Position numbers and translations under genes: made by a program. This document shows, piece after piece, positions 15,912 to 41,604 of a stretch of DNA of 41,604 nt. Source of the stretch: Chiloscyllium plagiosum. Its lineage: Eukaryota. The stretch's first letter is position 1. Every line of letters begins with the position of its first letter. A model generated the notes under the pieces. That model was not told where the DNA came from. It saw nothing but the letters and a program-made list of their open reading frames with translations, and made no database searches. Location of the stretch: contig NW_025214621.1 of assembly GCF_004010195.1 (NCBI RefSeq), positions 1 through 41,604 of the forward strand, written 5' to 3'.

Positions 15912-16405
15912 ATAGACTGGCACTGCCATCATGTTAAGGGTTTAAATGAAGAGGAATTTGTTAAGTGTATGCAAGAACATTTTCTGATTCAGTATGTGGA
16001 TGTATCGACAGAAGAAGGTGCAAACCTTGACCTGCTTTTGGGAAATAAGGAGGTGACTGAGGTGTCAGTAGGGGAGCATGTTGGGGCCAGGGACCATAAT
16101 TATATCAGTTTTAAAATAGTGATGGCAACGGATAGATGGGATCTAAAGGTTGAAGTTCGAAATTAGAGGAAAGCTAATTTTGATGGTGTGAGGCAAGAAC
16201 TTTCAAAAGCTGACTGGGGTCAGATGTTCGCAAGTAAAGGGACAGCTGGAAAATGGGAAGCCTTCAGAAATGAGATAACGAGAGTCCAGAGACAGTAGAT
16301 TCCTGTTAGGCTGAAAGGAAAGGCCGGTAGGTATAGGGAATGCTGGATGACTAGAGAAATTGAGGTTTCAGTTAAGAAAAAGAGGGAAGCTTATGTCAGG
16401 TAAAG

Positions 16406-16539
16406 CCCTTTTTCCTGAAGAAGGGCTTATGCCCGAAACGTCGATTCTCCTGTTCCTTGGATGCTGCCTGACCTGCTGTGCTTTTCCAGCAACACATTTT
16501 CAGCTCTGATCCCCAGCATCTGCAGTCCTCACTTTCTCC
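16406..16539 (+). mobile_element. Short Penelope terminal-repeat insertion carrying a hammerhead-like motif
   Basis: Perfect 14-bp TSD tatgtcaggtaaag at 16392-16405 and 16540-16553. The sequence matches the 3' end of the Penelope at 31390-31518. Confidence 0.9.
16415..16442 (+). ncRNA. Putative minimal type I hammerhead ribozyme core
   Basis: CTGAAGA-A-GGGC-TTAT-GCCC-GAAA-CGTC: conserved CUGANGA and GAAA boxes, 4-bp stem II, palindromic ACGU in place of stem III. Confidence 0.7.
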
Positions 16540-18105
16540 TATGTCAGGTAAAGGCAGGAGAGATTGAGTGAATCCTTGGGAATATGAAGGCAGTAGGGGT
16601 ATACTTCAGAGGGAAATCAGGAGGGCAAAAGGGGACATGAGACAGCTTTGGCAAATAGGGCTAATGATAAACCAAAGGTTTTTATAAATACAATAAGGAC
16701 AAAATAGTAACTAGGAAGAGAATAGGGCCCCTCAAAGATCAGCAAGGCAGCCTATGTGTGGGGCTGCAAAAGATGTAGGAGATACTAAACGAGTATTTTG
16801 CATCAGCATTTACTGTGGAGAAGGACATGGAAGATATAGAACATGGGGAAATAGATGGTGACATCTTGAAAAAGGTTCATATTAAATAGGAGGAGGTGCT
16901 GGATGTCTTGAAATGCATAAAAGCGTATAAGCTCCCAGAACATGATCAAGTGTACCCCTGTACTCAGTGGGAAGCTAGGGAAGTGATTGCTGGGCCCCTT
17001 ACTGAGATATTTGTATCATCGATAGTCACAGGTGAGGTGCCGGAAGACTGGAGGTTGGGTAACATGGTTCACTCACTTCTTTAAGAAATATGGTAAGGAA
17101 AAGCCAGATAACAAAATAGGTGCCTGACATAGGTGATGGGCAAGTTGTTGGAGGGAATCCTGAGGGACAGTATTTACATCCATTTAGAAAGACAAGGATA
17201 GATCAGGAATAGTCAGCATTGCTTTGTGTTTGGGAAATCATGTTTCACGAACTTGATTGAGTTTTTTTGAAGAAGTAACAAAGACGATTGATGCGGGCAG
17301 AGTTGTGGACGTGATCTATATGGACTTCAGTAAGGCATGGGAGACTGGTTAACAAAGTGAGATCTCATGGAATACAGGGATAACAAGCCATTTGGATACA
17401 TAACCGGCTGGAAGGTAGAAGACAGAGGGTGGTGATGGAGGGTTGCTTTTCAGATTAGAGACCTGATAAGTATGAGGTGCTGCATTTTGGAAAAGCAAAT
17501 CAGAGCAGGACTTACACAGTTAATGGTAAGGTCCTCAGGACAAAGAGACATTGGGGTATAGTTTCAAAGTTCCTAGAAAATAGAGTCACAGGTAGATGGG
17601 ATAGTGAAGAAGGCATTTGGTATGTTTTCCTTTATTGGTCAGAGTATTAAGCATAGGATGATGAAGGGCAGAGGCTGGTACAATTACAGCATTTAATCGG
17701 GATGGATATATGAACAGGAAGACTTGAGAGGGATATTGGCCAAGTGCTGACAAAAGGGACTTGATTGGGTTAGGACATCTGGTTGGCATGGACGGGTTTG
17801 ACCGAAGGGTCTGTTTCCATCCTGGACATCTCTGACTCTATAACATGAAATCCCAACTTCCATACTCAATGCACTGTTATTTGGTTACGTCTGTCAATAG
17901 TTATGGAATTTTAAATTCCTCTTTATTTTGTTTGTATTTTAACTATCGTGTTTAAATTGCGTGTTGCTTAATGTCGAGTAGTTTAACCAGTTGCATCACA
18001 TCTGGAACATACACTTCACATTTACCTTTAAAATAAGAAAAGGTTAGGGTACAGGCTATCTTTCTAAAAGATTTCGAGGAGGTCAGGTCTCGTCCATAAC
18101 ACTTT

Positions 18106-18665
18106 ATAGAACTTTAGTTACGCCACACTTGGTATAATGCGTACAATTCTGGCCACCACACTATCAGACGGATGCCTTGGAGAGGGTCCAGAAAATGTTT
18201 ACCAGGATGTTGCCTGGCCTGGGGGTTGTAGCTATGAAGAAAGGTTGGACAGACTGGGTTTGCTTTCACTGGAATGCAGGAGGTTGACGGGGGCGACCTA
18301 ATAGAAGTTTTGTAAGATTGTGAATGGCGTGGATAGAGTGGAAAGTATGAGGCTTTTTCCCAGGGTGGGAGGGGTCAATTACTAGGGGACACAGGTTCAA
18401 GATGTGAGGGGGGCAAGTTTAAAAGAGATGTATGAGGCAAATTTTTCACACAAAGGGCAGTGAGTGCTGCTCAAGGAGGTGGTGCAAGCAGACAAAATAG
18501 CAGCTTTCAAGAAGCATGTGGACGAGTACATGAATAGGAAGTGAACAGAGAGATATGGATCCTGTAACTGAAGACAGTTTTAGTATAGAAGAACAAAATG
18601 TGTTGGCACAGGTTTGAAGGGCTGAAGGGCCTGTTCCTGTGCTGCATCATCCTTTAGTGCTCTCT
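18106..18665 (+). mobile_element. CR1 LINE 'A', right part with 3'UTR
   Basis: LERVQKMFTRMLPG-like translation, gggcctgttcctgtgctg 3'UTR motif, and a T-rich tail. Contiguous with 12926-13210. Confidence 0.9.
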
Positions 18666-18679
18666 TGTTTTTGTTGTTC

Positions 18680-18770
18680 TGCAAACTCCACACAGTTACG
18701 CAAGGCTGGAATCAAACCTAGGCCTCCAGCACTGTGAGGCAGTTGTGCTAACCACTGAGCCTCCGTGCTG
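18680..18770 (-). mobile_element. tRNA-derived SINE 5' head (HE1-like)
   Basis: Reverse complement cagcacggaggctcagtggttagcacaactgcctcacag...ggtttgattccag...gtgtggagtttgca, with Pol III A-box (GGCTCAGTGG) and B-box (GGTTTGATTCC). Confidence 0.8.
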
Positions 18771-18975
18771 TGGAAATATGGTGGAGGCAGGTACGAGTGA
18801 GGCATTCAAGAGTGCAGTGAGTGATTATTGGAACAGAAACACAAACAACTCTGTGTTTCATTCTCAGATTTATTCTCACATGTCATACATTGAAGTCAGA
18901 ATTATCTCACTTTCCCTCCCACCACCATTTTGGATTTTGGAACTTCAGATAAAGGGTCGCTTACCTGTACAAGGT

Positions 18976-19080
18976 TTTGGACTGCTGTTTCTTCATCAGG
19001 TAGCTACCTGACAAAGAAGCAGTGCTCCGAAAGCTGAAAGCTCAAATAAACCTGTTGGATTAGAACCTAGTCTTGTGATA
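18976..19080 (+). mobile_element. Second-family Penelope-type terminal repeat with an inverted 5' segment and a decayed hammerhead motif
   Basis: cctgacaaagaagcagtgctccgaaagct...aaataaacctgttgga, preceded by its partial reverse complement; perfect palindrome tcaggtagctacctga at 18996-19011. Confidence 0.6.
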
Positions 19081-19125
19081 TTGCCAGTATCAGGAGGTTT
19101 AATGCTGAGATGTATTTTCCTACAG

Positions 19126-19202
19126 TATCGCTGTTACTACATGGGATCTGTGAGAAAATTCCCTGGATCCCAGGTCTCTGCAAGCATGTGCTCAGGTTTC
19201 AG
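19126..19202 (+). CDS. ADAM-family metalloprotease, prodomain exon (77 nt, phase 0 to 2)
   Basis: Acceptor ttttcctacag, donor AG|gtaaac. Translates YRCYYMGSVRKFPGSQVSASMCSGF, matching the reprolysin propeptide motif CYYxGxVxxxxxSxxxxSxCxG. Not in the ORF track. Confidence 0.92.
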
Positions 19203-19282
19203 GTAAACAATCTGACTATTTCTTCTCAGGTTTTAAACTGGATTTAGATATAGAACATTTTAGCCTGTAAGATGTTCCCTTG

Positions 19283-19523
19283 GCAGGATCACTCACTGTG
19301 GGACTGTGCTGGGATGTGTTTATTCAGCAGGATGAGGGTCACTCACTGTGTAACTGTACTGGGATGTGTTTATTCAGCAGGGTGAGGGTCACTTACTGTG
19401 TAATTATACTGGGATGTGTTTATTCAGCAGTGTGAGGATCAATTACTGTGTAACTATACTGGGATGTGTTTATTCAGCAGTGTGAGGATCAATTACTGTG
19501 AAACTATACTGGGATGTGTTTAT
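19283..19523. repeat. 50-bp minisatellite, about 4.8 copies (last unit resumes at 20290)
   Basis: tattcagcag recurs at 19321, 19371, 19421 and 19471. Unit is approximately tattcagcagggtgagggtcactcactgtgtaactgtactgggatgtgtt. Confidence 0.95.
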
Positions 19524-20285
19524 TGTTAAGAAGTTGAAGGTGTGTACTGCACTCTTAAGAGTGTGAATGCTGTTCTGAACTGAGGGACGACAAGCACCTG
19601 TGTATATGACTAGATGTCAGTCTCAAGAGTTTACGAGAAAATTGAAAATATGTAACACTTGGCTGTGAAATGGATACCTGAGCTTTAGTTGCTATTTTGA
19701 CAATAATTTGAATTTAATCAATCATCTTAAATTATGCCCCAGGATATAAAACCCAACCAAGTTTGAATTTATTGTTTGCCAACATTGAACCAATGAGATG
19801 ATCCAATGTTGGGGATATAAAAAATCAGACAGAGCAACTGTCATTGAGAGAGAGAGAGAGAGAGAGACCCAAGAAATTAGGAAACACTCTCCATCAAAGG
19901 CACCTTTTTGGAGGAAACTTATTCGCAGTAAAAAGAAAGAAGATGACTCAGGAAGATCTTCAGCCATAAGAAGACAGACACCAAAAATGATAGCTGCTGT
20001 GTGATTTTGAAATTATGTTGATTTAATTTTCATAAGAGTTTTATTGGAACAACATATTGTTATAGAGTGGAGGCAGATAATAAGCAGTTAAGAGGAAGGG
20101 GGATTTAGAGTTGTGAATAGTTGTTTAATGTTCACTTTTAGAGTTAAAGGATAAATTGATATTATGTTCTTTAAATAGTGGAATTTGAGAGTTCACTGTC
20201 ACTCAATTTAACAGATTACAAGATGAGGTGAGCTTTTCTGGGTGTTTGGTTTAATTACAGAAGAGTTCACTGCTGTGTTGTAATA
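19524..20285 (+). mobile_element. Solo-LTR-like element (762 bp) with TATA-like box and internal (GA)n
   Basis: Starts TGTTA and ends GTAATA (decayed TAACA). 4-bp TSD ttat at 19520-19523 and 20286-20289 splits a minisatellite unit. gatataaaaa near 19814; (GA)n near 19846-19868. Confidence 0.75.
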
Positions 20286-20351
20286 TTATTCAACAGGGTA
20301 AAGGTTACAAGGATTGTTTTCTCTCTATCTTTGTTTGTTTCTCTTCTGCAG

Positions 20352-20526
20352 TGCTGTGATTGTGTTCAATAATCAAACATATGTCATTGAACCTATTGGT
20401 GGGGATGCAAGTGGTCGTCATTTGTTATACAGAGCTGAAGACCTCCTGCCAGTATCGAGCAGCTGTGGAGTCAGAAATCTAACCCTTGAGTTAAACCTGA
20501 CCGATCACCTCCAGCCCTCTCAGAGG
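20352..20526 (+). CDS. ADAM-family metalloprotease, prodomain exon with cysteine switch (175 nt, phase 2 to 0); ADAM8/12/15/19/33-like group
   Basis: Long polypyrimidine tract plus ctgcag acceptor; donor AGG|gtgagt. In frame with the previous exon: (S)AVIVFNNQTYVIEPIGGDASGRHLLYRAEDLLPVSSSCGVRNLTLELNLTDHLQPSQR, with YxIEP, HxxY and CGV motifs. Confidence 0.93.
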
Positions 20527-21529
20527 GTGAGTAATGAACACTGTAACTAAAGAACTCACAGAAAGAAAGAAGTCCCATAGAAAATACAATCCTCAGACAC
20601 AGCCTTCAGCTCAGGCAGCTCATGGAAGGTTCATTTACTCAGCATATTCCCGTTTCCCTTCTGACTCTCTTGCTCTCCTATTGAAAGTCGATATTGATGG
20701 AGATTGTCTCTGAAGCACTGACTCTAGAAATGAATCCATGGCTGCGCTATTCTTTCTGTGATGCAAATCTCCTATTATAAAGCTCTTATATTGAATTGTT
20801 TCTCTCTGACCTCTTGTTCGAGACTGTCAGCGACTGGAAACAATCAGTTTTCATCCATCTGCCCCATCATTTCACTATTCTTCAGACTTCCTTTCTGTCA
20901 TTGATGACAAAATGTGCTGACAGGAAAGAGTTTGAACCATTGTAAGAGATATGTAAAGCAGTAATCATTCAGCTCAGAAAAAAAATCAGTAAAAACGGCA
21001 AAAAATGCCAATGATGAGATGCTTGAACAATGTAATAAAGATGAAACTAAAACCAAATGACAAACCTTTCCAGCTCTGGTGTATTTCAGTCCCCAACAGC
21101 ATTTTAATCCTTTTACAATGTTATTACAGATTCTGCTACCCTCTGGACAGTCAGTCCCAATTCCATCCTCTAATAAATCCTTGTGAAATCTCTTTGTAAT
21201 AACACAGGGAACTAACTGAAAAAGTCCATCATTTATTGTTGAGCACCAAAATAGAGCCACTACTCATGGCACACACTGGCTGTCCCTGCTCTGACAGACA
21301 GTTCTGTCGTCCCATCCCTGGACCTGCTTTATAAAGGGCTCAGGTTATGAGGTCCAGCTCAGCAGGCCATTGCCTGTTACTAAGGGTACTCACCAGGGGA
21401 GATTTGTTGGTGATTCCCCATGAACCTTAAAGACCTTGTCATATTCCGAGATCTTATGTCAGGGATACAAGAAGAGAATATGGAATAACGGAAATCCCGA
21501 CTTAACAAACCCAACTCAAAAGAGTACAA

Positions 21530-21626
21530 AATAAAAACTGGAAATACTGCGGATGCTGTGAGAATCTGTTCTGAGGAAGGGTCACGCAACTCGAAATGTG
21601 ATCTTTGATTTTTCTCCACAGATGCT
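21530..21626 (+). mobile_element. Third-family Penelope-type terminal repeat fragment with hammerhead-like motif
   Basis: ctgaggaagggtcacgcaactcgaaatgt at 21571; related to the minus-strand copy at 25511-25615. Confidence 0.6.
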
Positions 21627-22077
21627 TTGAGTATAGGAGGTGGGAAGTGATGTTCAGACTGTACGGGACATTGGTGAGACCTCTTTTGGAATACTGTGTC
21701 CAGTTGTGATCACTCAGTTACAGGAACAAAGTTCAGCTGGAGAGGGTTCAGAAGAGATTTGCTAGAGTGTTGCTGGGGGTGGAAGGTTTGAATTATAAAG
21801 AAAAGCTGAATATGCTGCGACTTTCTCATGGAGCAGAGGAGCTTGAGAGGTGACTTTATAGAAGTTCATAAAATAATGAGGGGTATACATAGAGTTAATA
21901 GTAGTTATCTTTTCACGAAGATGTGGGATTTCAAGGCTGGGAACACATTTTTAAGGTGAGAGGAAAGAGATTTAAACAAGATATGAGGGGCAAAGTTTGT
22001 ACTCAGAGGTTGGTTTGTGTATGGAATGAACTTCCTGAGGACCTGGTGGATGTGGGTACAATTACAATATTTAAAAG
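21627..22077 (+). mobile_element. CR1 3' fragment (resumes at about 22617-22750 after an LTR-like insert)
   Basis: LYGTLVRPLLEYCVQ, LERVQKRF and QRLVCVWNELPEDLVDVGTITIFK. Continues catttggataagtacatg at 22617. Confidence 0.9.
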
Positions 22078-22616
22078 TGTCACAAAGCTGGTCCCTTTTT
22101 TCCAAAAGTTGTTCCTTTTCTCAAGGATACTGTGTCCTTGATTTTTCCAGTGGGGTCATAAACCCTCCCGGCTCCAAGGTGACTAGTTTGGTGCAGAGAT
22201 GAAAAAGGATGTTGAGAGGCCTAATGTCTATATGTAAACAGATGAGACTTCAGGCTAAAGTGGTCATGTTTTAGAAGTGATGTGTATAATGAAAGGGGAG
22301 TGGTCAGCTCTCTAGCTGAGTAGGCGAAAGTGGGTACTGAGATGCTGGAGATTAGAGTCAAGATTAGAGTGATGCTGGAAAAATGCAGCAGGTCAGGCAG
22401 CATCTGAGGAGCAGGAAAATCAATGTTTCAGGCAAAAGCCCTTCATCAGGAATCCTTATGTAATTTTGTGAATACATTTTTGTCTATTTTAAAACCTGGT
22501 AGTCAACCTCACTAACTTACTCCAGGTAATTTTCACTGTACACTTACCGAAACAAATTGCAAAGTTATGGTCTGGGCTGCTTGCTTAAGAATGTTTTTGA
22601 GTGGTCTGGCCTCGTC
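22078..22616 (+). mobile_element. Internally deleted LTR-like element interrupting a CR1
   Basis: Starts TGTCAC. Its end (aaagttatggtctgggctgcttgcttaagaatgtttttgagtggtctggcctcgtc) resembles the 18040-18095 LTR terminus. Terminal ACA and TSD not visible. Confidence 0.55.
22322..22453 (-). mobile_element. Short Penelope terminal-repeat copy (partially duplicated at 23070-23139)
   Basis: Reverse complement begins attcctgatgaagggcttttgcctgaaacattg and matches the 16406-16539 family. Confidence 0.85.
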
Positions 22617-23715
22617 ATTTGGATAAGTACATGAGTAGGAAAGGTTAGGAGGGATACAGGCCAGGAGTAGGCAGGTGGGACCAGTTTAGTTTGGGATTAT
22701 GGTCAGCATGGGCTTGGGTTGGATTGAAGGGGCTGCTTCTGTGCTGGATGACGATGATGTCAGACATGCTGAAGTTTTCCAGAAATTCCTATTTTTGTGT
22801 CAAACGTGTACAAGATGTTCTTATTTTCATCCTATATGTGATGATGGCTGATAGAAGGGCTTGGTCTCGCCACTACTGGAATTAAAACATTGGTAGCCAG
22901 AGAGCTGTCAGGGAGATACACACGCAGGAGGCTGAAAGAACACAGCAACCCAGGCAGTATCCGGAGGTGGAGAAGTCAACGTTTTGGGTGTAATACTTCT
23001 TCAGGGGTTAGCTGGGGGTCAGGGGAGCTGCAGGTAAAGGGGATGGAGGGGAGTTATGGGGGAGGCTTTTGCAGCAGGTCAGGCAGCATCTGAGGAGCAG
23101 GAAAATCAATGTTTCAGGCAAAAGCCCTTCATCAGGAATCCTTATGTAATTTTGTGAATACATTTTTGTCTATTTTAAAACCTGGTAGTCAACCTCACTA
23201 ACTTACTCCAGGTAAGTTTCACTGTACACTTACCGAAACAAATTGCAAAGTTATGGTCTGGGCTGCTTGCTTAAGAATGTTTTTGAGTGGTCTGGCCTCG
23301 TCATTTGGATAAGTACATGAGTAGGAAAGGTTAGGAGGGATACAGGCCAGGAGTAGGCAGGTGGGACCAGTTTAGTTTGGGATTATGGTCAGCATGGGCT
23401 TGGGTTGGATTGAAGGGGCTGCTTCTGTGCTGGATGACGATGATGTCAGACATGCTGAAGTTTTCCAGAAATTCCTATTTTTATCTCAAGTGTGTACAAG
23501 ATGTTCTTATTTTCATCCTATATGTGATGATGGCTGATAGAAGGGCTTGGTCTCGCCACTACTGGAATTAAAACATTGGTAGCCAGAGAGCTGTCAGGGA
23601 GATACACACGCAGGAGGCTGAAAGAACACAGCAACCCAGGCAGTATCCGGAGGTGGAGAAGTCAACGTTTTGGGTGTAATACTTCTTCAGGGGTTAGCTG
23701 GGGGTAAGGGGAGCT
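22384..23715. repeat. Near-identical direct tandem duplication, period 686 bp (22384-23029 versus 23070-23715)
   Basis: Duplicate ORFs at 22691 and 23377 (offset 686). Only a few substitutions seen, e.g. ttttgtgtcaaacg versus ttttatctcaagtg. Confidence 0.95.
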
Positions 23716-24230
23716 GCGGAGCTGAGAGGAAGGGCTGATCAGAGGAATGGAAGGGAGGGGAAGGGGCTGGAAACAGAGGAGGGGATGGGAAGGGAGGATA
23801 TTTCAAACTGGAGAACTCAATGTTTAGTCCTCCAGGCTGTAGGCTGCCCAGGTGTGGTCTGATTCGCTGTGGCAATGGAGGAGGCCAAGAATGGTCATGT
23901 TGGAAAGGGGACTTTAAATTGGACAGTGACTGGGAGGTCTAGTCAGCTCCTGCAGGCCTGGCTGTAATGCTTGGCGAAATGGGTCCTAAGTTTATGTTTT
24001 ATCTCCCTGATGTAGAGAAGACCACATTGGGAGCACTGCATTCAGCAGATTGCAGGAGATGCAGGTGAACCTCTTTCTCACCAGGAAGGACTATTTGGGG
24101 CCTTGGATGGAGGTGGGACGGTAGTGTGCCGGCAAGTTTTGCATCTTTTACGCTTGCAGGGAAAGGTGCCTGGGGTTTTAGGAGGGCTGGTGGGGAGAAT
24201 GGTGTGAACCAAAAACGGGTGCAATGAAAA
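23595..24230 (-). mobile_element. Degenerate Penelope 3' fragment (GIY-YIG region and terminal repeat), fourth subfamily
   Basis: Minus-strand translation includes RFTC and QCSQCGLLYIRE. Terminal cctgaagaagtattacacccaaaacgttgac is a decayed hammerhead motif. Confidence 0.75.
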
Positions 24231-24334
24231 GGTCACCCCAGTGCACTTGGGGTTTGTAGGAAAACAACCGAATAAAATACAGCCCTCTCACCTTCATCTC
24301 TCACAACTGTGCACCTGCAACACACACACAATCA

Positions 24335-25110
24335 CTGGATGAGAAATCCAAGAAACCAACTAATGTTTTGGGAATCCTTATCTTAATCCTGCCATGGCAG
24401 ATAGAGGAATTTGAAGTCAACAAAATCTGAAATTAAAATTCTAATGCAGACCATGAAACAATTGTTGGGAAGGAATTCTGCCATCCTGATCCAGTCTGGC
24501 ATACACGTGACTCCAGACCCACAACAATGTGGTTTGTTTCTAACATGCCTCTGAAATAGCCTGGCAAGTCACTCAGTTTATTTTGTGACAAAGTCTCAAA
24601 AAAGGAGTGAAACCAGACAGATCATCTGTCTTCGACCTACACTCTGGAAGTGACAACATCAGCCACAGCCCTGTCGACACTGAAAAGTAGTCCTTATTAA
24701 CATCTGTGGGCTGTACCAACATTGGAAGAGTCGACATTTCAGGCAAAAGCCCTATTCCTGATGAAGGGCTTTTGCCCAAAACGTCAACTCTCCTGCTCCT
24801 TGGATGCTGCCTGACCTGCTGTGCTTTTCCAGCACCACACTCTCGACTCTAATCTCCAGCATCTGCAGTCCTCACTTTGGCCAACACTGACTCTCACAGA
24901 CTAGTTCATCAACAGCCTAACATAGTCATACTGATGGTTTATATTTTACAAACATTGTCCGAGACACCACCATCATCATCTCTGGATATGTCCTGTCCCA
25001 CCGACAGGACAGATCCAGCAGAGGTGGTGGTACACTGGGACACAGAGAGGAGGGAGATGTCCGGGGTGTCCTCAACAATGACTTTGAAACCCATGAAAAC
25101 TAATGGCATC
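24335..25110 (+). mobile_element. 5' part of an old LINE: leader followed by a decayed AP-endonuclease N-terminus
   Basis: Frame-broken SHRLVHQQPNIVIL...GYVLSHRQDRSSRGGGTL, which is the APE motif 'R.DR...GGG'. Confidence 0.6.
24726..24880 (+). mobile_element. Short Penelope terminal-repeat insertion with an inverted 5' segment
   Basis: gagtcgacatttcaggcaaaagccct is inverted relative to agggcttttgcccaaaacgtcaactc. Flanked by ccaaca...ccaaca. Confidence 0.85.
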
Positions 25111-25139
25111 AGGTGAAATATGAACAAGAAAACACCCAG

Positions 25140-25410
25140 CAGATGTGCATATCCACAGATCCTTGGAGGCAGCAGCATAGGTAGACCAAGTGGTTAAGAA
25201 GGCAAATGGATGAACTGCCTTTATTAGTCAAGGCACTGAATACAAAAGATTATGATGGGGCTCTGTGTAATATTAGTTAGGCCACAGTTGGAGTACTACG
25301 TGCAGTTCTGGTCATCACACAATAGGAAGGATGTGACTACATTAGAGAGGGTGCAGAGGAGATTCATCAGGAATTTGGCAGGATTGAAGCAATTCAGCTT
25401 TGAGGAGAGA
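25140..25410 (+). mobile_element. CR1 fragment
   Basis: LVRPQLEYYVQFWSSHNRKDVTTLERVQRRFIR. Confidence 0.85.
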
Positions 25411-25510
25411 CTAGACCATGAATCATGCAGTTCAGAAGAGGTCCTTTGGCCTGTCCAATCTGTACAATTAAAATACATTCCTACCTCCACTAGCCTCACT
25501 TTCTCTATTC

Positions 25511-25615
25511 CAAAACAAAATCAGAAATTGTTGGAAAAGCTCAGCAGGTCTGGCAGCATCTAAAGGAGAGAAATCAAAGTTAACATTTCGAGTCCGATGA
25601 CCCTTCCTCAGAACT
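25511..25615 (-). mobile_element. Third-family Penelope-type terminal repeat with hammerhead-like motif (25582-25611)
   Basis: Reverse complement CTGAGGA-A-GGGTC-ATCG-GACTC-GAAA-TGTT. Confidence 0.65.
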
Positions 25616-25624
25616 GCCTTCTTC

Positions 25625-27655: not shown

Positions 27656-27749
27656 ACTCCAGTATCTTGTTGAGTAAATCCTTAACTCCAGATAGGTTGA
27701 GGTTGTTTTCCTTAAAGCAGGGAAGGCTATTGGCAATCTTATTGAGGTG

Positions 27750-27946
27750 AAAGTGAGGTCTGCAGATGCTGGAGATCAGAGCCGGAGATGTGTTGCTGGA
27801 AAAGCGCAGCAGGTCAGGCAGCATCCAGGGAACAGGAGAATCAACGTTTCGGGCATTCCTGAAGAAGGGCTTATGCCCGAAACGTCGATTCTCCTGTTCC
27901 CTGGATGCTGCCTGACCTGCTGCGCTTTTCCAGCAACACATCTCCG
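27750..27946. mobile_element. Fold-back Penelope terminal-repeat insertion (74-bp inverted arms, 16-nt loop)
   Basis: Arms at 27783-27856 and 27873-27946 with one mismatch. 15-bp TSD aatcttattgaggtg at 27735-27749 and 27947-27961. Confidence 0.93.
27859..27886 (+). ncRNA. Putative minimal type I hammerhead ribozyme core
   Basis: CTGAAGA-A-GGGC-TTAT-GCCC-GAAA-CGTC, identical to 16415-16442. Confidence 0.7.
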
Positions 27947-28744
27947 AATCTTATTGAGGTGTATAAAGTTCAAAGGAGCACAGACAGTGTCAGTGAGGAG
28001 TTATTATTTCCTTTAGTTGAGCAGTCAAAAAACACGGAGGCATAGTTTAAAGGAGAGGAGTAACAGGACAGTGGAGGTGGGAGCCCTTGAGACATTTAGA
28101 ATAATTTAGATGAGCACTTAAACTCCTCAAATACAAGCCTAAGGACCAATTGCTGGATAATGGGTTTAGAATAGATGGATATTTCATGACCAGTGTGGAC
28201 ATGATGGGCCAAATGGACTTTTCCATGCTGTAAAAACTCTAAGACTCTGAGACCTTTATAAGTGGGAACCTGTTACTTCCAATAATCAGGAGTTCTGATC
28301 AGCACCAAAAGATCTCAGCAAACCCTATGGACACAGACCTCGGAATTGCATTCCCAGTATTTCCCTTCACCAAAAACACTCATGTTTTTTATTCCTGTTT
28401 GTTTCCATCAATAGGGTATGTGTGTGGGAGTTTAAAGATTAGTTCGAGTTTTGATTAATTGACGTATTGTTGTCACATGCACTGAGATACAGTGGAAAAT
28501 GTTGTTTTGCCTCCTTTACAGGCAGTTTGGAACAGACAAAGTGCATCAGTGGAGCAGAGCTTAAAAAAAAGCATCTCTACACTTCTTCGCCAAATCCCCA
28601 CTCTCAGTCTATACTTCAATAAGATTTAGAACGATGAGTGGTAGTCTCAATGAAACTGAGAAGTCTGGATAGAGGGGACAAGGAGAAGATGTTCTCACTA
28701 GTATGAGAAACTAGGACCTAAGCGCACATCATTAGAGTGAAGGC

Positions 28745-31700
28745 ATTTTTATTTTCAGCAGCAGCAGGAGCAGTGACAGTGAGGACCAGTTAGCTGCTGG
28801 GAAGGTAAATTCTTATGAAAAGGCATAACCTCGAGCATCAGCGGCCTTCATTTTCAGCAGCAGCAAGAGTAGTGAGAGCGAGGACCTGAGTGGGAGTGGT
28901 CAAATTGCATTCTGGGAAAGTGAGTGAACTGATAGATTTGGGCAGCAGAGGGAGAAAAGGAATGGGTGACCAAATGGCAGAGAAAGAGCAGGAAAGCTGT
29001 GCAGGTGTCCCCTGCAGTCATCTCCCTCAAAAACAGGTTTACCGTTTTGGATACTGTTGAGGGAGATGGCTCACTAGGGGAAGGTAACAGTTGCCATGTT
29101 CATGGCACCATGGCTGGCTATGCTGTTCAGAAAGGGCAGGAAAAAAAGTGGCAGAACTTTAGTCATAGGTAGTTCAATTGGAAGGGGAGTAGAAGGCGGA
29201 ACTGTGGTCGAAAACGAGACTCCCGAATGGTACGTTGCCTTCCAGGTGCATGGGTCAGGGATGTCTCAGATTGGCTGTGGGACATTCTGAATGGGGACGC
29301 ATATAGGCACCAATGATATAGGTTAAAACAAAAAGAGGATGAGGTCTTACAAGCAGAATTTAGGGAGTTAGGAGCCAAGTTAAAAAGTAGGACCTCAGAG
29401 GTAGTGATCTCAGGATTGCTACCAGTGCCACATGATAGTCAGAGTAGAAATGAAAGAATAGACAGGATAAATACATGGCTTGAGAGATAGTGCAGGTGGG
29501 AGGGGTTGTTGGGACATTGGGACCTGTTCTGGGGGAAGTAGGACTTTTAAAAAATTGGACGGCCTACACCTGGGCCGGAGTGGAACCAATGTCCTTGGGG
29601 GTGCTTTTGCTAATGCTGTTGGGGAGGGTTTCAACTAATGTGGCAGGTGGAAGGGAATCCAAATGAGGTTATTGGACAGTAAGGAGGTTGTACCTAAACC
29701 TGTAAATAACTAATAATTAAGTCAGCGTGACTAAGGGGAAGAGTAAATAGAAGTTCTTTTCACCAAACTCATTTCCACATATTTGATTCTGTCCCATGTC
29801 CCCTTGTCCAGGAACTCTGACCTACATTCGGGCCACCATCCACACCCTCCACCTCGTCCATGAATTTTATTTCCCTGGCCTCCAATGCCTCATCTTCACC
29901 ATGGATATCCCGTCCCTATACACGTCTATCCGCCATGACAAAGGCATCCGGGCCCTCTGTTGCTTCCTCTCCCGATGTTCCCAACAGTATCCTTCCACTG
30001 ACACTCTCAATCATTTGGCTGAACTGGTCCTCAACCTCAATAATTTCTCCTTTGAATCCTTCCACTTCCTCCAGACAAAAGGGGTAGCCATGGGCAGCCG
30101 CATGGACCCCAGCTATCCCTGTCTCTTCATTGTATACATGGAACAGTCCATCTTCCGCAGCTACATCGGCACCATTCCCCACCTTTTCCTCTGCTACATT
30201 GATGAATATATTGGCGCCACCTCCTGCTTCCACCAGGAGGTTGAACAGTTCATCCATTTCACCAACATGCTTCACCCTGAACTTATGTTCACCTGGACCA
30301 TTTTGGACACCTCCCTCCCCTTCCTGGACCTCTCTATATCCATCAACGTTGACCGACTCAACACGGACATCTTCTACAAAGCCATCAACTCCCACAGCTA
30401 CTTAGACTACAACTCCTCCCGCCCTGCCTCCTGTATCCCTTATTCCTAATTCCTCTGCCTCTGGCACATCTGCTCCCAGGAAGACTGCATTTTCCCCTCG
30501 CAGGTGGTTGATGACCCTCTCCAGAGCACCTCATCCACTTCCCGCACCTCCACGTTTGAACCGCACCTCTCCAACCACCTCGGTCCACATCTTCCACCCC
30601 ACCCATCTCCAAATACATTGCAAAATCCTCTGCCATTTCTGCCACCGACAAACGGACTCCACCACCAGAGATATATTTCCCTCTCCACCCCTATCTGCTT
30701 TCCGTAAAGACCATTCCCTCCGTGGTGCTCTTGTCAGGTCCACTCCTCCCACCAACCCACCCTCCCCTCCCGGCACCTTGCTCTGCCACTGCAGGAATTG
30801 CAAGACCTGTGCCCACACATATGCCCTCACTTTGTCCATGGCCCCAAAGGAGCCTTCCACATCAATCAGAGATTTTCTTGCACTTCCACACTTCTCATTT
30901 ACTGTATCTGTTGCTCCTGATGTGGTCTCCTCTACAGTGGGGAGACAGGATGCCTACTTACAGAATGCTTCAGAGAACATCTCTGGGATACACGCACAAA
31001 GCAATCACATCACCTCGTGACTGAACACTTTGACTCCTCCTCCCACTCTGTCAAGGACATACAGGTGCTGGGCCTCCTCCATCACCAAACCCGAACCACC
31101 TGACGCTTGGAGGAAGATGCCTCATTTTCCGCCTTGGGCCCCTCCAACCACATTGATGTGGATTTCACCAGTTTCCTCAATTCCCCTCTCCGCCACCTTA
31201 TCACAGATCCAATTTTCCAACTCAGCACCGCCCTCATGATCTGTCCTACCTATCCATCTTCATTCCCATCTATCCACTCCACCCTCGTCTCTGACTTATC
31301 ACTTTTAACCCCACTTTCAGCTACCTATCACACTCTCAGGTACCTCCCCCTGCCATTTATCTCTCTACCCCCTTGACTCACAAGCCTCATTCCTGATAAG
31401 GGGCTTAGGCCTGAAATGTCAATTCTCATGCTCCTCGGATGCTGCCTGACCTGCTGTGCTTTTCCAGCACCACACTCTCGACGCTGATCTCCAGCATCTG
31501 GAGTCCTCACTTTCTCTGAAGGGGAAGAGCACGCAGGGAGCAGATAATGAACACAAAGGGACTGATGGTCTGAGGTGCATTTGTTTTAATGCATGAAGTG
31601 TAGTAGGTAAAACAGATGAACTTAGGGCTTGGAATAGGACCTGTAATATGATGTTATTGCTATTACTGAGACTTGATGAGGGGAGGGCATGATTGGAAAC

Positions 31701-33100: not shown

Positions 33101-33109
33101 TTCACATGA

Positions 33110-34530: not shown

Positions 34531-34535
34531 TTTAG

Positions 34536-34582
34536 AGGCAGCATGGCGGCTCACTGGGAAGCACTGCTGCCACAATGCCAGG
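34536..34582 (+). mobile_element. Short decayed tRNA-SINE head
   Basis: ggcagcatggcggctcactgggaagcactgctgcc resembles the SINE head at 18680-18770. Confidence 0.45.
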
Positions 34583-34589
34583 TGTTCTA

Positions 34590-35412
34590 GACCACCTTAT
34601 CCACTTGTGTTGCTACTTTGAGGAAACTGCGGGCTTATGTGCCTAGATCTCTCTCTCTTTTCTGACGCTTCTCAGGGTTCTGCCATTTACAGAATACTAC
34701 TCTCCTCCCAAAATACATCACTTCCCATTTGTTCAGATGAATTTACATCTGCAATTTCTCTGACCAAATCTCTAGCTATCTATATCCTGCTGCATCCTCT
34801 GGCAATCTTCCTCACCATCCACAGCTTTCTTAATCTTTGTGTTGTTCTCAGACCATCTACGTTCTCTTCCAAATCACTGTACGTATTACAAACAAAAGCG
34901 GTCCCAGCACTGATCTCTGCGGCACACCAGTCGTCACAGATCTCCATCAGAAAAACATCCTCCCCTGCTTATTGCTGTCTTCTGTGACCAAGCCAGTTCT
35001 GTACCCACCTTATCAACACAACACAGATCACACATAACTTCATCTTCTTTATCAGCCTGCCATGAGGGACCTTATCAGAGGCCTTGCTAAAGTCCATTTG
35101 ACAACATCAAGCACTCCGCTCTCATTAATAATCTTTGTCGCTTCTTCAAAGAACTCAATCAAGTGGGTGAGGAATGAGCTCCCCCACACAAAACCATGCT
35201 CCCTCTCGCAAATAACTGTGAGTATATTCTTGCTAAAAAAACCTTCTTCAATAATTTCCCTACCACTGACCTAAGACTCAACAGGTTATAATTTCCTGGA
35301 CTGTCTCTGTTGTCTTTCTGAGACAAAGGAAGAGCATTGGCTATTTACCATTTCTCTGGAACCTCTTCTGTGACTAATGAGGATACAATCATTCATATGG
35401 GCCCCCAGCAAT
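34590..35412 (-). mobile_element. CR1 RT fragment
   Basis: Collinear with the minus-strand CR1 at 40200-41050 (cccagcactgatctctgcggcacacca; gccttgctaaagtccat). Confidence 0.8.
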
Positions 35413-35414
35413 AT

Positions 35415-36448
35415 CTTCACCTGGATTACACCTCTTCCCACCCTACCTCTTGCAAAAATGCCATCCCGTATTCCCAATTCCTCCGCCTCCGCCGGATCTG
35501 CTCCCAGGAGGACCAGTTTCACCACAGAACACACCAGATGGCCTGCTTCTTTAGAGACTGCAATTTCCCTTCCCACATGGTTAAAGACGCCCTCCAACGC
35601 ATCTCGTCTACATCCCACACCTCCGGCCTCAGACCCAACCCCTCCAACCGTAACAAGGACAGAACGCCCCTGGTGCTCACCTTCCACCCTACCAACCTTC
35701 GCATAAACCAAATCATCCGCCTACATTTCCGCCACCTCCAAACAGACCCCACCACCAGGGATATATTTCCCTCNNNNNNNNNNNNNNNNNNNNNNNNNNN
35801 NNNNNNNNNNNNNNNNNNNNNNNNNNNNNNNNNNNNNNNNNNNNNNNNNNNNNNNNNNNNNNNNNNNNNNNNNNNNNNNNNNNNNNNNNNNNNNNNNNNN
35901 NNNNNNNNNNNNNNNNNNNNNNNNNNNNNNNNNNNNNNNNNNNNNNNNNNNNNNNNNNNNNNNNNNNNNNNNNNNNNNNNNNNNNNNNNNNNNNNNNNNN
36001 NNNNNNNNNNNNNNNNNNNNNNNNNNNNNNNNNNNNNNNNNNNNNNNNNNNNNNNNNNNNNNNNNNNNNNNNNNNNNNNNNNNNNNNNNNNNNNNNNNNN
36101 NNNNNNNNNNNNNNNNNNNNNNNNNNNNNNNNNNNNNNNNNNNNNNNNNNNNNNNNNNNNNNNNNNNNNNNNNNNNNNNNNNNNNNNNNNNNNNNNNNNN
36201 NNNNNNNNNNNNNNNNNNNNNNNNNNNNNNNNNNNNNNNNNNNNNNNNNNNNNNNNNNNNNNNNNNNNNNNNNNNNNNNNNNNNNNNNNNNNNNNNNNNN
36301 NNNNNNNNNNNNNNNNNNNNNNNNNCACTGCCTTTATGCCCAAAACGTCGATTTCGAGGCTCCTTGGATGCTGCCTGAACTGCTGTGCTCTTCCAGCACC
36401 ACTAATCCAGAATCTGGTTTCCTGCATCTGCAGTCATTGTTTTTACCT
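35415..36448 (+). mobile_element. Young Penelope 3' portion spanning the assembly gap
   Basis: Open frame LDYTSSHPTSCKNAIPYSQFLRLRRICSQED...PLVLTFHP before the gap. Terminal repeat (tatgcccaaaacgtcg...atctgcagtcattgtttttacct) after the gap. Confidence 0.88.
35774..36325. other. Assembly gap (552 N)
   Basis: Run of N. Confidence 1.
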
Positions 36449-36494
36449 CGATAAATACTTGCCTGACCAGCCAGACCTTATTTGTGAATGAAGT

Positions 36495-37060
36495 TTAAAA
36501 AATCCAGTTATCCTGACTCTCTGTTTTCTGTTGGTTAGATGGTCCTCTATCCGACCTAATGAATTCCCCTCACTCCATGTGACATTGTGTATTGACTTTT
36601 TCTGTGTAACCTTTTCAAATGCCTTTTGAATTCTACTGATACAAAATCTACAGGATTCCAATATTCACTTTGCTTATGGCATCTTCAAAGAACTCTAGCA
36701 AGTTAGTCAAACATGATTTCCCCTTCTCAAAACCATTCTGACTCTGATGGATTGTATTTTGACTTTCCAAATGTCCTAATTTTCCTTAATAATGGATTCT
36801 ATCAATTTCCCATCAATACATGCTAATCTAACTCACCTGTAATTTCCTATTTTCTGCCTCCCTCCCCTTTTGAATAAGAGTGTTCCATTTGCATTTTTCC
36901 AGAGGAACTGTTCCCGCATTCAGGGGATCTTGCAATGTTATAACCAATAGATTCAGTTCCTTTTAGGCTATAGGATGTAGGTCTCAGTCACTGGGGACTT
37001 ACCTGCCTTCAATCCCAACAGTTTGCTTTGCATGTTTTCCCTCGTGATGATGATTGTTCT
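36495..37060 (-). mobile_element. Old CR1 RT fragment
   Basis: Minus translation includes QKAFEKVTQK and LTNRKQRVRITGFF. Confidence 0.75.
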
Positions 37061-37274
37061 AAGTTCCTCATTTTCTATAACTTCTGTTCACCTGTCACTA
37101 AAGTAGTATTCACGTAGAGGGCATGGACTGAGAATTAGGGCCAGAATGTTCAGGAGAGATATAAGAAAGCATGTCTACACCCAAAAGGTGGTAGATGTTT
37201 GGAAATTTCCCTCACAAATGGCAGTGGATGCTGGTTCAATTGTTAATTTGAAATTTGAGATAGATACATTTTTG

Positions 37275-37802
37275 ATATACATTGACATAGATACATGGAC
37301 AAACACACCAACCATCCCCACCACTCCATGGTTGAACACTTCAACTTCCCCTCCCAATCTGCCAACGACAGGCAGGTTCTGGGTCTTCTCCATTGCCAAA
37401 CTCTTACCAACTGATGCCTGGAGGAAGAAGACCTCATTTTCAGCCTTGTGACTCTGAAACCACATGGGATTAATGTGGATATCACCAGTTCCCTCATTTC
37501 CCTTTACCCCCACATTATCTGTCTCAAGCCTCCAACGCGGCATCACCGCCTTGACCTGTCCATCACCTTTCCCATCTATCTGCTCCACTCTCCTCTCTGA
37601 CCAATCACCTTCTCCCCCACCTTCATCTAATATCACATTATCAGCTACCTTCTCCCAACCTCACCCCTCTCCCATTTATCTCTCAACACCTAGCCCACAA
37701 GCCTCTTTCCTGATAAAGGACTTTAGCCCGAAACATCAATTCTCCTGTTCTCGGATGCTGCCTAACCTGCTGTGCTTTTCTAGCACCACACTCTCAACAT
37801 AT
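37275..37802 (+). mobile_element. Penelope 3' fragment inserted in a CR1 3' end (host about 37115-37850)
   Basis: Similar to 30985-31480; decayed core cctgataaaggactttagcccgaaacatc. 11-bp TSD atacatttttg at 37264-37274 and 37803-37813. Confidence 0.85.
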
Positions 37803-37994
37803 ATACATTTTTGTTAAGTCATGGCATTAAGGGCTATGGACCAGAGACAGTTATATGAAATATCCTCTAAAAGATAATGAAGGAAGGTTGTGTGCCGAAC
37901 CTGAGAGAATGGGTGAGATTCTGAATGATTACTTTTCCAGCAACACATTTTCAGCTCTGATCTCCAGCATCTGCAGTCCTCACTTTCTCCTCCA

Positions 37995-39208
37995 TGTTAG
38001 ATTCAGGATTCAAGTGTTGGGCAGCTCGGGGTGTGTCTTGCATGGGTGATTTATTTGAGGGAGACACAATGATGTCCTTTGATCAGTTAGCATGGAAATA
38101 CGAGCTATCTAAAAGAGAACTCTTCTGTTTATTTTTTCAAGTTAAGAATTTTATTCAAAAAAACCTACACTTTTGATTGATCCCAACAAATCCGATATAG
38201 AGAGGAGGGTGTTCATGCTGAGAGTACACTTTCTGTTAGCACTTTATATCATCAGTTTGAGGGGATGCCCCTCAGCTGAGTTCGATTGGCTCTGCAGGAT
38301 ATGGGAGACAGAGCGAGGCGTTGAAGTTTCTTCAGAGGTGTGGGAAGATATTTGGGAAAATGCAAGAAAGGTATCAATTTGCAATCGGACCCATGCTTTA
38401 CAGTTGAAGATTCTCCATAGGGTCCACTTGGTTCTGGACTATTTGTCAAAATTTAAACCAGGGGTATCTTCAACATGTCCCAAGTGCAAGGTCTGTACGG
38501 ACACTCTCACCCATTGTCTCTGGACCTGTGGTAGGCTTCAAACATACTGGAGCACTGTGGCAGGTGGAATGGAGGGGATTTTGGGTGTAAGGGTGCAGAG
38601 GGACCCGATCTCTCTTCTTTTGGGCCTGCCCAGTGTGTTCCCTGCAGATGTGCATAAGAAAAAAATTTTCAATATCCTCACTTTTTGTGCAAGAAAGAAT
38701 ATCTTGCTAGGTTGGGTATCTGAAAACTCCCGGGACTGTTGGGTTGGCGGAAGATTGTTTTGGAATATATTCCCTTGGATTTTCTCACAAGTATAGTACA
38801 CCACAAAACTGAGAATTTTTATAAGACATAACAGCCCTTTTTGGAATACCTGGGCTCAGATTTATCTGCCACACTAACAAGGGCTTTTATATAGCTGTAA
38901 CGATTGGGTTTTACAAGTCCAATATCCAAGGAAGAGGATCTGTGAATGTATGACTGTCTTGTTTGGCTGAGTTGAGTTATTATTATTTATTAGTTTGTTG
39001 TTGGTTATTATTTATTTAGTTAAATAGTTAGTTGGGTTTTTATATTATATATTTTTCTATATATTATGGGGGTACATGGGGGTAAAGGGTTTCTTTACCT
39101 TTTTCTCTCGTGTTCTTTTTTTTGTACTGTTTTGAAATGTATTGTTTTGTATTTGTTGTAATATTAAAAAAATTATTTTTTCAATGAAAATATATCTTAA
39201 AAAAAAAG
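37995..39208 (+). mobile_element. L1-clade LINE, 5'-truncated: ORF2 C-terminal cysteine-rich domain, T-rich 3'UTR and poly(A)
   Basis: WEDIWEN...LQLKILHRVHL...CPKCKVCTDTLTHCLWTC..LQTYW is the CCHC zinc-binding region typical of fish L1 ORF2. A-tract at 39199-39207. Confidence 0.85.
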
Positions 39209-39211
39209 ATG

Positions 39212-41604
39212 GTGACTGGGAGGTCCGGTCAGCTCCTGCAGGCCCGGCTGTGATGCTTGGTGAAACGGGTCCTAAGTTTATGTTTTATCTCCCTGATGTA
39301 GAGAAGACCACATTGGGAGCACTGCATTCAGTAAACTAAATTGCAGGAGATGCAGGTGAACCTCTGTCTCACCTGGAAGCACTGCTTGAGGCCATGGATG
39401 GAGGTGGGGGTGGGGGGTGGTGGTGTGCCAACAAATTTTGCATCTTTTACGCTTGCAGGGAAAGGTACCTGGGGTTTTGGGGAAGGCTGGTGGGGAGAGT
39501 CATGTGAACCAGGAACGGGCACAATGAAAAGGTCACCCCAGTGCACTTGGACAAAGAACAAAGAACAAAGAAACTTTACAGCCCAGAAACAGGCCCTTTG
39601 GCCCTCCAAGCCTGAGCTGATCAAAGTCCACTGTCCAAACTTGTCGCCCAATTCCTAAGCATCTGTATCCCTCCGCTCCTCACCTACTCATGCATCTATC
39701 CAGCCACATCTTGAGTGAATCTACAGTGCCTGCCTCTACCACCTCTGCTGGCAACATGTAACAGGCACCTACCACTCTCTGTGAAAAATACTTGCTGCAT
39801 ATATACCCCTTAAACTTTTCACCTCTTAACTTGAACGCGTAACCTCTCGTTATTGAATCTTTCCCCCTGGGAGAAAGCTTATCTCTATCTACCCTGTCTA
39901 TACCCTTCATGATTTTGTCAACCTCAATCAGGTCCCCCCTCAATCTCCTTTTTTCTAATGAACACAATCCTAACCTACTCAACCTCTCTTCATAGCTAGA
40001 ACCTCCATACCAGGCAACATCCTCATAAACCTTCTCTGCACCCTCTCCAAAGCGTCCACATCCTTTTGGTAATGGGACAGCCAGAAATATACACAATATT
40101 CTAAATGCGGCCTAACCAATGTCTTGTACAATTTTAACATGACCTGCCAGCACTTATACTCAATACCCCGTCCAATGAAGGCAAGCATACTATATGCCTT
40201 CTTGACCACTCTATCCACCTGTGCAGCAACCTTCAGGGTACAATGGACCTGAACTCCCAGATCTCTCTGCTCATCAACTTTTCCCAAGGCTCTTCTGTTT
40301 ACTGTATAATTTCCCAAGGCTCTAGAATTAGACTTCCCAAAATGCATCACCTCACATTTGTCTGGATTGAACTCCATCTGCCACTTCTCTGCCCAACTCG
40401 CCAGTCTATCTATATCCTCCTGTATTCTCTGACATTCCCTTATGTTTTCTGCTACTCTACCAATTTTTGTGTCATCTGCAAACTTGCTGATCATACCAAC
40501 AGCTCCCTCTTCCAGATCATTTATGTATATTACAAACAACAGTGGCCCCAGCACTAATCCCTGTGGAACACCACTGGTCACCTTCCTCCATTTCAAGAAA
40601 CTTCCTTCAACCACTACTCTCTGTCTCCTGTTGTTCACCCAGTTCTTTATCCACCGAGCTAGAACACCCTGCACACCATGTGACTTCACTTTCTCCATTA
40701 GTTTACAGTGGGGAACCTTATCAAATGCCTTACTAAAGTCCATATGTATGACATCAACAGTCCTTCCTTCATCTATCAACATGGTCACTTCCACAAAGAA
40801 CAGTATTAAGTTGGTCAGCCATGATCTCCCCCACACAAGCCTATTATTTTCCAAGTATCAATAGATCCAATCCCTCAGTACCTTCTCCAGCAACTTTCAC
40901 ACCAGTGATGTCAGGCTCACTGGTCTGTAGTTACCTGGAATATCCCTACGATCCTTCTTGTACAGGGGGACAAAATGAGCAACATTCCAGTCCTCACCTG
41001 TATTTAAGGATGCCACAAAGATGTCTGTCAGGGCCCCAGCAATTTCCTCTCTTGCCTCCCTTAGGAACCTGGGATAGATCCCATCCAATCCTGGGGATTT
41101 GTCCACCTGGAGCTTATTAGGAAAACAACCGAATAAAATATAGCCCTCTCACCTTCATCTCTCACAACTGTGTACCTGCCCCACACACACAATCACTGGA
41201 TGAGAAATCCAGGAAACCAGCTAATGTTTTGGGAACCCTTGTCTTAATCCTGCCACTGTAGATAGAGGAATTTGAGGTCAACAAAATCTGGAATTAAAAT
41301 TCTAATGTAGGCCATGAAACAATTGTTGGGAAGGAATCCTGATCCGGTCTGGCATATACGTGACTCCAGACCCACAACAATGTGGTTTGCTTCTAACATG
41401 CCTCTGAAATCACTCAGTTTATTTTGTGACAAAGTCTCAAAAAAGGACTGAAACCAGACAGATCATCTGTCTTCGACCTACACTCTGGAAGTGACAACAT
41501 CAACCATAGCCCTGTCGACACTGAAAAGTAGTCCTTATTAACATCTGTGGGCTGTACCAACATTGGAAGAGCCGACATTCTTGATGAAGGGCTTTTGCCC
41601 AAAA
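39212..41604 (+). repeat. Second copy of segment 23926-24780 (39212-39550 plus 41111-41604), interrupted by a CR1
   Basis: Shares the same succession of unrelated repeat pieces and their junctions. ORFs 24573-24779 and 41414-41602 are near identical. Confidence 0.92.
39551..41100 (-). mobile_element. Young 5'-truncated CR1 with largely intact RT
   Basis: 291-aa ORF with MDFSKAFDKVPH, SGVPQGLVLGPLLF and KFADDTK. (CTTTGTT)n tail at 39551. Flanks gtgcacttgg and gtccacctgg form an imperfect TSD; the empty site is visible at 24241-24260. Confidence 0.95.

Follow-up and report, generated by a model that had tools for sequence, protein, structure and literature searches.

Minimal hammerhead motifs in Penelope-like elements of a shark-like genome, and short copies that begin just upstream of the ribozyme core

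Minimal hammerhead ribozyme motifs were described in 2014, by Cervera and de la Peña, in the pseudo-long terminal repeats (pLTRs) of metazoan Penelope-like elements (PMC4209133). Minimal motifs are inactive as single units and weakly active as dimers (PMC4209133). Dimer-cleaving small hammerheads of Penelope-like retrotransposons were described by Lünse, Weinberg and Breaker (RNA Biol 14:1499, cited in PMC6765202). The pLTR of Penelope contains an internal promoter (PMC2377424). For PAc, the Poseidon element of Anolis carolinensis studied by Frangieh et al. (2024), reverse transcription begins inside the RNA, mainly on uncleaved template, and cleavage depends on protein (PMC11167929). Here, we analyse a stretch of 41,604 nucleotides from contig NW_025214621.1 (hereafter the window), in which an earlier note had pointed to recurrent hammerhead cores at the ends of Penelope-like elements. 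We conclude, with high confidence, that these are minimal hammerheads in the pLTR module of probably four endonuclease-bearing Penelope-like families. The copies in the window would be by-products of retrotransposition that have since decayed.

The window belongs to a shark-like genome; the best protein relatives are from Chiloscyllium, Rhincodon and Stegostoma. Apart from a satellite at 472 to ~12950, it is rich in long interspersed nuclear elements (LINEs), among which lie two + strand exons of an ADAM12-like gene. We found 13 hammerhead motif sites between 16.4 and 41.6 kb. All ten sites of the earlier note are among them, at or a few bases off the positions it gave. The two copies it called intact, at 16415-16442 and 27859-27886, prove to be so (CUGAAGA-A, stem II GGGC/GCCC, then GAAA-CGUC). 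The variant it placed at 41577 is present but starts with UUGAUGA at 41581 and is truncated by the window end. Sites at 22449, 23135 and 23004, all on the - strand, were absent from that note. Every core position is kept at five of the 13 sites, and C3, G8, G12 or H17 is lost at the other eight. Perfect stem II, an ACGU palindrome and a full core occur together at two sites only (16415 and 27859). A pattern that is short, and that Rfam leaves unscored, might be met by chance. To score this, bases 13001-41604 were scanned with a strict descriptor (CUGANGA, one extra base, a 4-bp stem, GAAA and NUH). This gave five matches, compared with none (maximum 0) in 60 dinucleotide shuffles. With up to one mismatch allowed there were eight, against a shuffle mean of 0.275 (maximum 2; 40 shuffles). 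The position of the motif is also fixed behind Penelope frames, as described below. Hence, chance matching is refuted, and we consider its probability negligible.

Self-comparison groups the 13 sites into four families, A to D. Family A comprises 16415, 22449 (-) with its local duplicate 23135 (-), 24758 with its duplicate 41581, 27859, 31393 and 37710. Family B comprises 21571 and 25611 (-), family C is 23690 (-) with its duplicate 23004 (-), and family D is 19008. Counting each of the three duplicate pairs once leaves 10 independent insertions with a visible core. Several divergent families had been proposed, and there are indeed four, but the ten sites then listed are six of family A, two of B and one each of C and D, not ten independent contexts. 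The assignment to minimal type I hammerheads is borne out by the anatomy. An extra base stands between positions 9 and 10.1 throughout (13/13). Pair 10.1-11.1 is G-C at ten sites and G-U at three, which are decayed family A copies; G10.1-C11.1 is found in all four families. Stem II has 4-5 bp. The palindrome at 15.1-16.1, without loop 3, reads ACGU in families A and C and AGCU in D. It is exact in six of 12 scorable sites, and the other six differ by CpG-type transitions. Helix I has all four pairs at 25611 (-) and three of four at 27859 and 22449 (-); it is decayed in families C and D.

Several pairs differ between families on both sides. At 10.4-11.4, family A has C-G, families B and C have U-A and family D has G-C; at 10.3-11.3, A and B have G-C and D has A-U; at 2.1-1.1, A and C have C-G and B has U-A. 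The palindrome, ACGU in A and C, likewise changes to AGCU in D. Such double-sided changes occur between families only and, with four families, are suggestive. Differences within family A are mostly CpG transitions that break pairs or turn them into wobbles, which is decay. We aligned ten copies from the four families; note that the family D row of this alignment is one column out of register. Paired cells make up 73.7% of the total in the proposed register, compared with 14-48% in slid registers. The number of pairs changed on both sides was reached by 177 of 500 shuffles.

The link to Penelope-like elements comes from adjacent reading frames. By tblastn, bases 29820-31187 hold a reverse transcriptase (RT), a CX4CxxC linker and a GIY-YIG domain, and the 31393 motif follows directly downstream. 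Endonuclease remnants are likewise found upstream of the motifs at 37710 (+) and 23690 (-). Note that the endonuclease fragments are unrecognised by Pfam and were placed by tblastn. The motif lies 200-230 nucleotides (nt) past the endonuclease frame in two family A copies and ~110 nt past it in the family C copy. Before the C-terminal GIY-YIG, a CX2-5CxxC linker is present in family A (near 30790) and in family C (24179 and 39478, both -). This linker marks Neptune and Nematis, not Penelope/Poseidon (PMC8557442). By that mark, families A and C appear Neptune-like. The proposal that the motifs sit at Penelope ends, on the sense strand, thus holds for A and C, which have adjacent RT or endonuclease frames. 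Families B and D are probably also of Penelope origin, judging from their anatomy.

Since the 31393 copy is decayed, we aligned reads of other copies to it, over 31249-31548, from a poly(A) single-cell RNA run and three contig sets. The RNA reads restore G8 in 406/420 cases. They carry the extra A in 399/420 and G1.1 in 1166/1328, and N7 varies (A in 172/417). Among the rows listed, majorities for G8, the extra A and G1.1 in the three contig sets agree with the RNA run. On the aligned letters, the catalytic core is shown to be kept by the master elements of family A. RNA reads cover both strands of the region (~1150 and 1720 at peak), as expected from passive intronic transcription. The family A pattern was found in 0 stretches of viral, metagenome and prokaryote genome collections. 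In two runs, 93,592 and 75,056 contigs aligned to family A, figures that are not copy numbers. The earlier description of the families as high-copy is, to this extent, right for family A.

We next consider where the insertions begin. Three of the 10 independent insertions continue upstream into the Penelope frame. The seven others are short and all begin 3-5 nt upstream of CUGANGA, at 16412, 22453 (-), 24754, 27855, 21568, 25614 (-) and ~19004. None begins at the cut site. If truncation were even over 130 nt, clustering of this kind would have a probability of ~1e-10, on a crude and post hoc estimate. Outside the ten, one fragment begins 67 nt downstream (37932) and the start of another is hidden by an N gap. 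In four of the seven short insertions an inverted arm turns at the boundary (12, 27, 74 and 19 nt). Target-site duplications of 14-15 bp flank two of nine insertions searched; a third candidate, of 8 bp, was not accepted. The arms and the two duplications match the published architecture of Penelope insertions and so support the assignment (PMC3846280, PMC8557442). As the copies extend to 3-5 nt upstream of the core, their template was probably uncleaved. Of the 24 longest sequenced pieces shown, eight have their start at 31387-31390, and the cut site is the start of none. However, selection of these pieces was by length, and they are hence no test. Among the loose ends listed, those clipped at the cut site show hammerhead-core letters as their consensus (agreement 0.58-0.61). 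Hence, the clipping occurs at mismatches of the reference copy. The clipped ends leave room for a minority class of copies that do begin at the cut site.

These pieces of 120-130 nt could instead be an independent, non-autonomous family, SINE-like or retrozyme-like, that spreads by way of a short or circular RNA of its own, which the hammerhead processes. A common 5' boundary, similar lengths and target-site duplications are what such a family would show, and the contig counts above indicate very high abundance. According to a 2026 preprint, animal retrozymes descend from the pLTRs of Penelope elements, and one chondrichthyan is positive for them (bioRxiv 10.64898/2026.07.22.740005). However, identity between the short copies and the terminal part of 31393, a copy with a frame, is 85-88%. 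If a cleaved or circular monomer were the source, ends at the cut site would also be expected, and 0/7 copies start there. Tandem arrays of the module were not found in 13000-41604, in which the one array is a 50-bp minisatellite. We therefore think this origin unlikely, and return to the short pieces as truncated copies of longer elements.

How might such copies arise? Lacking a stable helix III, the motifs would, going by the literature, cleave only as dimers, through the 4-nt palindrome, or with a protein of the element. Reverse transcription would begin inside the tail, ~90-130 nt downstream of the core. Priming at a tail near the RNA 5' end would then give a copy of 90-130 nt that ends where the RNA begins. 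Copying would often reach no further than 3-5 nt upstream of CUGANGA, and fold-back would sometimes add a head-to-head arm; the boundaries are seen, the process is our interpretation. After insertion the copies would decay neutrally and would not function as host ribozymes. For the position 3-5 nt before CUGANGA, the likeliest identity is the 5' end of the RNA, a view in which we place slightly better than even confidence. The complete proposal asks for more. In it, transcription would begin at the 5' strand of helix I, so that the hammerhead would occupy the first 35 nt of the RNA. Most copies would be short ones of uncleaved RNA, made from the tail priming site up to that 5' end and often folded back. 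To this we give even credence. Two other explanations of the boundary were rejected. It is not a 3' splice site, as AG is missing before the boundary at 31389, and cleavage at an upstream CUC is discounted because neither helix I nor helix III can form there.

The main rival concerns the boundary only. It could be a structural stop, or fold-back hotspot, for RT at the edge of the folded hammerhead within a longer RNA, rather than a transcription start. In three families of different sequence the boundary is the 5' edge of helix I, and the fold-back of four of the seven copies occurs at that same point. In Drosophila virilis, 46 nt separate the start site from a downstream intron, and it is the end of this intron that maps to helix I (PMC2377424, PMC4209133), so that transcription does not start at helix I there. 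On the other hand, RT reads its template from 3' to 5', and one would expect it to stall on reaching the 3' side of a structure. The folding energy of the module is not unusual either (z -1.3 to +0.6 in 4/4 folds). Furthermore, the full-length context at 31393, TCATTCC, fits what we take to be the initiator consensus, with +1 at the boundary; the 37710 copy has T at the +1 position. We regard a structural stop as a possible but somewhat doubtful account, and keep the RNA 5' end as our preferred reading of the boundary.

Some observations weigh against parts of our interpretation. The covariation score of the ten-copy alignment, with its four families and misregistered D row, was reached by 50 of 500 shuffles and is not significant. 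Hence, the compensatory change in stem II proposed by the earlier note was overstated, given four families only. Most of the variants it listed reflect post-insertion decay. In family A, the third pair of helix I is mismatched (U-U or U-C). An Rfam search returned 10 matches at E values up to 10, with no hammerhead family among them; this silence presumably reflects the absent helix III. Families B and D have no Penelope frame in the window, and their 5' boundaries are deduced without a full-length copy. The depth step on the 31393 copy is confounded by the divergence of this reference copy. Finally, self-cleavage of the shark motifs, as dimers or with the help of protein, is putative and argued from analogy. 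A designed dimer of the 27859 motif is predicted to fold at -9.3 kcal/mol, versus -5.2 per monomer and -21.9 for the best non-hammerhead dimer.

The individual family A copies are as follows. A short insertion at 16406-16539 (+) holds the intact core 16415-16442 and a short 5' fold-back arm, between 14-bp target-site duplications (16392-16405 and 16540-16553). That at 22321-22453 (-) has a core from 22449 to 22422 with all core positions present and a decayed palindrome. Its 99.5% local duplicate, 23070-23139 (-), has the core at 23135 to 23108. The insertion at 24727-24880 (+) has a 27-nt fold-back arm and a core, 24758-24785, that has lost G12. The head-to-head insertion at 27750-27946 (+) consists of an inverted arm, 27750-27856, and a sense copy, 27855-27946, with the intact core 27859-27886. 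It is flanked by 15-bp duplications (27735-27749 and 27947-27961). The full tail is present only on the inverted arm; the sense arm ends ~35 nt earlier, which may be compared with the optional tail of Penelope insertions. A broken, 5'-truncated element at 29820-31518 (+) carries RT, the CX4CxxC linker, GIY-YIG (to ~31187), a 3' region and a tail; its motif, 31393-31420 (+), has lost G8. A younger, A-related element, 35418-36454 (+), has 89% amino-acid identity to P0001 and is interrupted by a 552-N gap, after which only the 3' half of the motif is visible. At 37297-37798 (+), a 3' end with an endonuclease remnant holds the motif 37710-37737, G8 lost. The fragment at 37932-37991 (+), which begins 67 nt after the core start, is tail only, without the motif. 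The last copy, 41577-41604 (+), has lost C3 and G12 and is incomplete, as the window ends within it. It belongs to a segment, 41118-41604, that duplicates 24257-24760 at 91% and holds the same insertion; the fold-back arm is absent from the 41577 copy.

Family B is represented by short insertions at 21568-21630 (+; core 21571-21600, H17 lost) and 25500-25614 (-; core 25611 to 25582 intact, 5-bp stem II). The 3' ends of both are approximate. Helix I of the 25611 (-) copy is perfect over 4 bp (AGUU/AACU). A tail block of 36 nt, downstream of the hammerhead, is common to families A and B (25528-25563 versus 16457-16492, 89%) and is a candidate protein-binding or priming signal. Family C has a Penelope-like 3' end at 23572-24250 (-; ends approximate), with the CX4CxxC linker and GIY-YIG remnant from 24227 to 23801. 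Its motif, 23690 to 23664 (-), has lost G12 and has a decayed stem II. A 98% local duplicate of this end, 22755-23031 (-), has its motif at 23004 to 22978, and an endonuclease fragment at 39212-39550 (-) is without a motif. The motifs at 22449 and 23690 are each doubled by a recent local duplication (22384-22599 with 23070-23285, 99.5%; 22755-23031 with 23441-23717, 98%), which could be real or an assembly effect. The family D insertion, 18972-19075 (+; 3' end approximate), has a core at 19008-19036 with G8 and H17 lost, the AGCU palindrome and a 5-bp stem II. It is a head-to-head palindrome centred 4-5 nt before the core, and its inverted arm retains CUGAUGA.

Family D ends ~50 nt before the first of the two ADAM12-like metalloprotease exons (19126-19202 and 20352-20526, both +; 90% to a Chiloscyllium protein). 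No further ADAM12-like exons were found in the window by tblastn. A tblastn extension that made the family D piece part of the ADAM protein was rejected on reading P0014. The intron between the exons contains the 50-bp minisatellite (19285-19524, 4.8 copies, 93% matches). Some copies might be host ribozymes that cut pre-mRNA of this gene, and the intact copies at 16415 and 27859 are indeed sense to both exons. However, folding predictions place each within its own inverted arms. Sequence 27750-27946 is predicted to form a long hairpin (-168 kcal/mol, z -23), and at 16395-16470 the 5' box and stem II are predicted to pair with the arm. Both intact copies are thus predicted to be locked in fold-back hairpins. 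The earlier note had chosen the 27859 copy for cleavage tests, a choice that suffers from its predicted burial, in genomic context, in a 74-bp hairpin. Rfam microRNA matches at 27818-27911 are this inverted-repeat hairpin, score under the gathering thresholds and were set aside. Sense copies are not depleted: eight sense sites (two of them mutual duplicates) compare with three independent antisense ones, a count that presumes all sites to be inside the ADAM12-like gene. Again, single minimal motifs do not cleave in vitro (PMC4209133). No pile-up of read starts or ends was seen, in a poly(A) single-cell library that cannot show ribozyme ends. On these predictions, a host function of the copies is unlikely, and cutting of the ADAM12-like pre-mRNA seems to us very improbable. 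Neutral decay after insertion remains the preferred account.

Other features of the window are listed for completeness. From 472 to ~12950 runs ~12.5 kb of GA-rich satellite with a 65-bp period, units 97% identical and all six frames open; it may be an assembly expansion. A LINE-type RT frame lies at 39979-40857 (-; PF00078, E 4e-24), and CR1-like fragments resembling it occupy much of the window. An open frame of 216 amino acids at 38146-38796 (+) has a CxxC and HxxxxC pattern and no Pfam match. It resembles the end of a LINE-1/Tx1-type frame.

No new class of RNA, and no host function, is revealed here. The class, the dimer model, single-copy dispersion and inverted insertions are already in print (PMC4209133, PMC3846280, PMC8557442). 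What the window adds is an extension of a known ribozyme class to sharks. Searches of the literature for hammerhead ribozymes with elasmobranchs or cartilaginous fish, and for Penelope with shark, found no dedicated description; the article by Lünse, Weinberg and Breaker was outside their reach. Insertion 5' ends cluster ahead of the core and not at the cut site, which gives genomic support for an uncleaved template, as found in vitro for the lizard element. If our proposal for the transcript is true, the ribozyme would act outside the insertion step, for example in removal of a capped leader or as a protein-triggered switch. The junctions of many copies would then be a genome-scale assay of cleavage timing.

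The closest match is to the minimal hammerheads of Cervera and de la Peña (PMC4209133). Shared features are the type I core without helix III or loop 3, the extra base after A9, G10.1-C11.1, a palindromic 15.1-16.1, a short helix I and several families per genome. Single copies from truncated elements also predominate there, and opposite-strand pairs occur. As for differences, cartilaginous fish were not found in the portion of the supplement searched. Stem II here, at 4-5 bp, is at the short end, helix I of family A is mismatched, and the accessible text says nothing of short copies that share a 5' boundary. The hammerheads of Lünse and colleagues, as reviewed in PMC6765202, similarly have a very short palindromic stem III and cleave as dimers, which is putative here. 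PAc resembles our elements in having a hammerhead near the element end and no reads ending at the cut site, and in what we propose here, an internal RT start in the tail and a mainly uncleaved template (PMC11167929). However, PAc belongs to Penelope/Poseidon and its frame starts at stem II (PMC11167929), whereas families A and C have the Neptune/Nematis linker, and an ATG inside the family A core reaches a stop after a short run of codons. Non-LTR retrozymes (PMC7229834, bioRxiv 10.64898/2026.07.22.740005) also combine a type I hammerhead with non-coding, Penelope-related repeats. They are, however, tandem units of 170-400 nt with mostly canonical hammerheads, unlike the dispersed, non-tandem copies of the window with their minimal motifs. 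Lastly, insertions of endonuclease-bearing Penelope elements (Arkhipova et al. 2013, PMC3846280; Craig et al. 2021, PMC8557442) share 5' truncation, an adjacent inverted copy, a palindromic junction, a one-arm tail, variable target-site duplication and solo pLTRs with those described here. The difference is that junctions in the window are concentrated at a single point immediately ahead of the hammerhead core.

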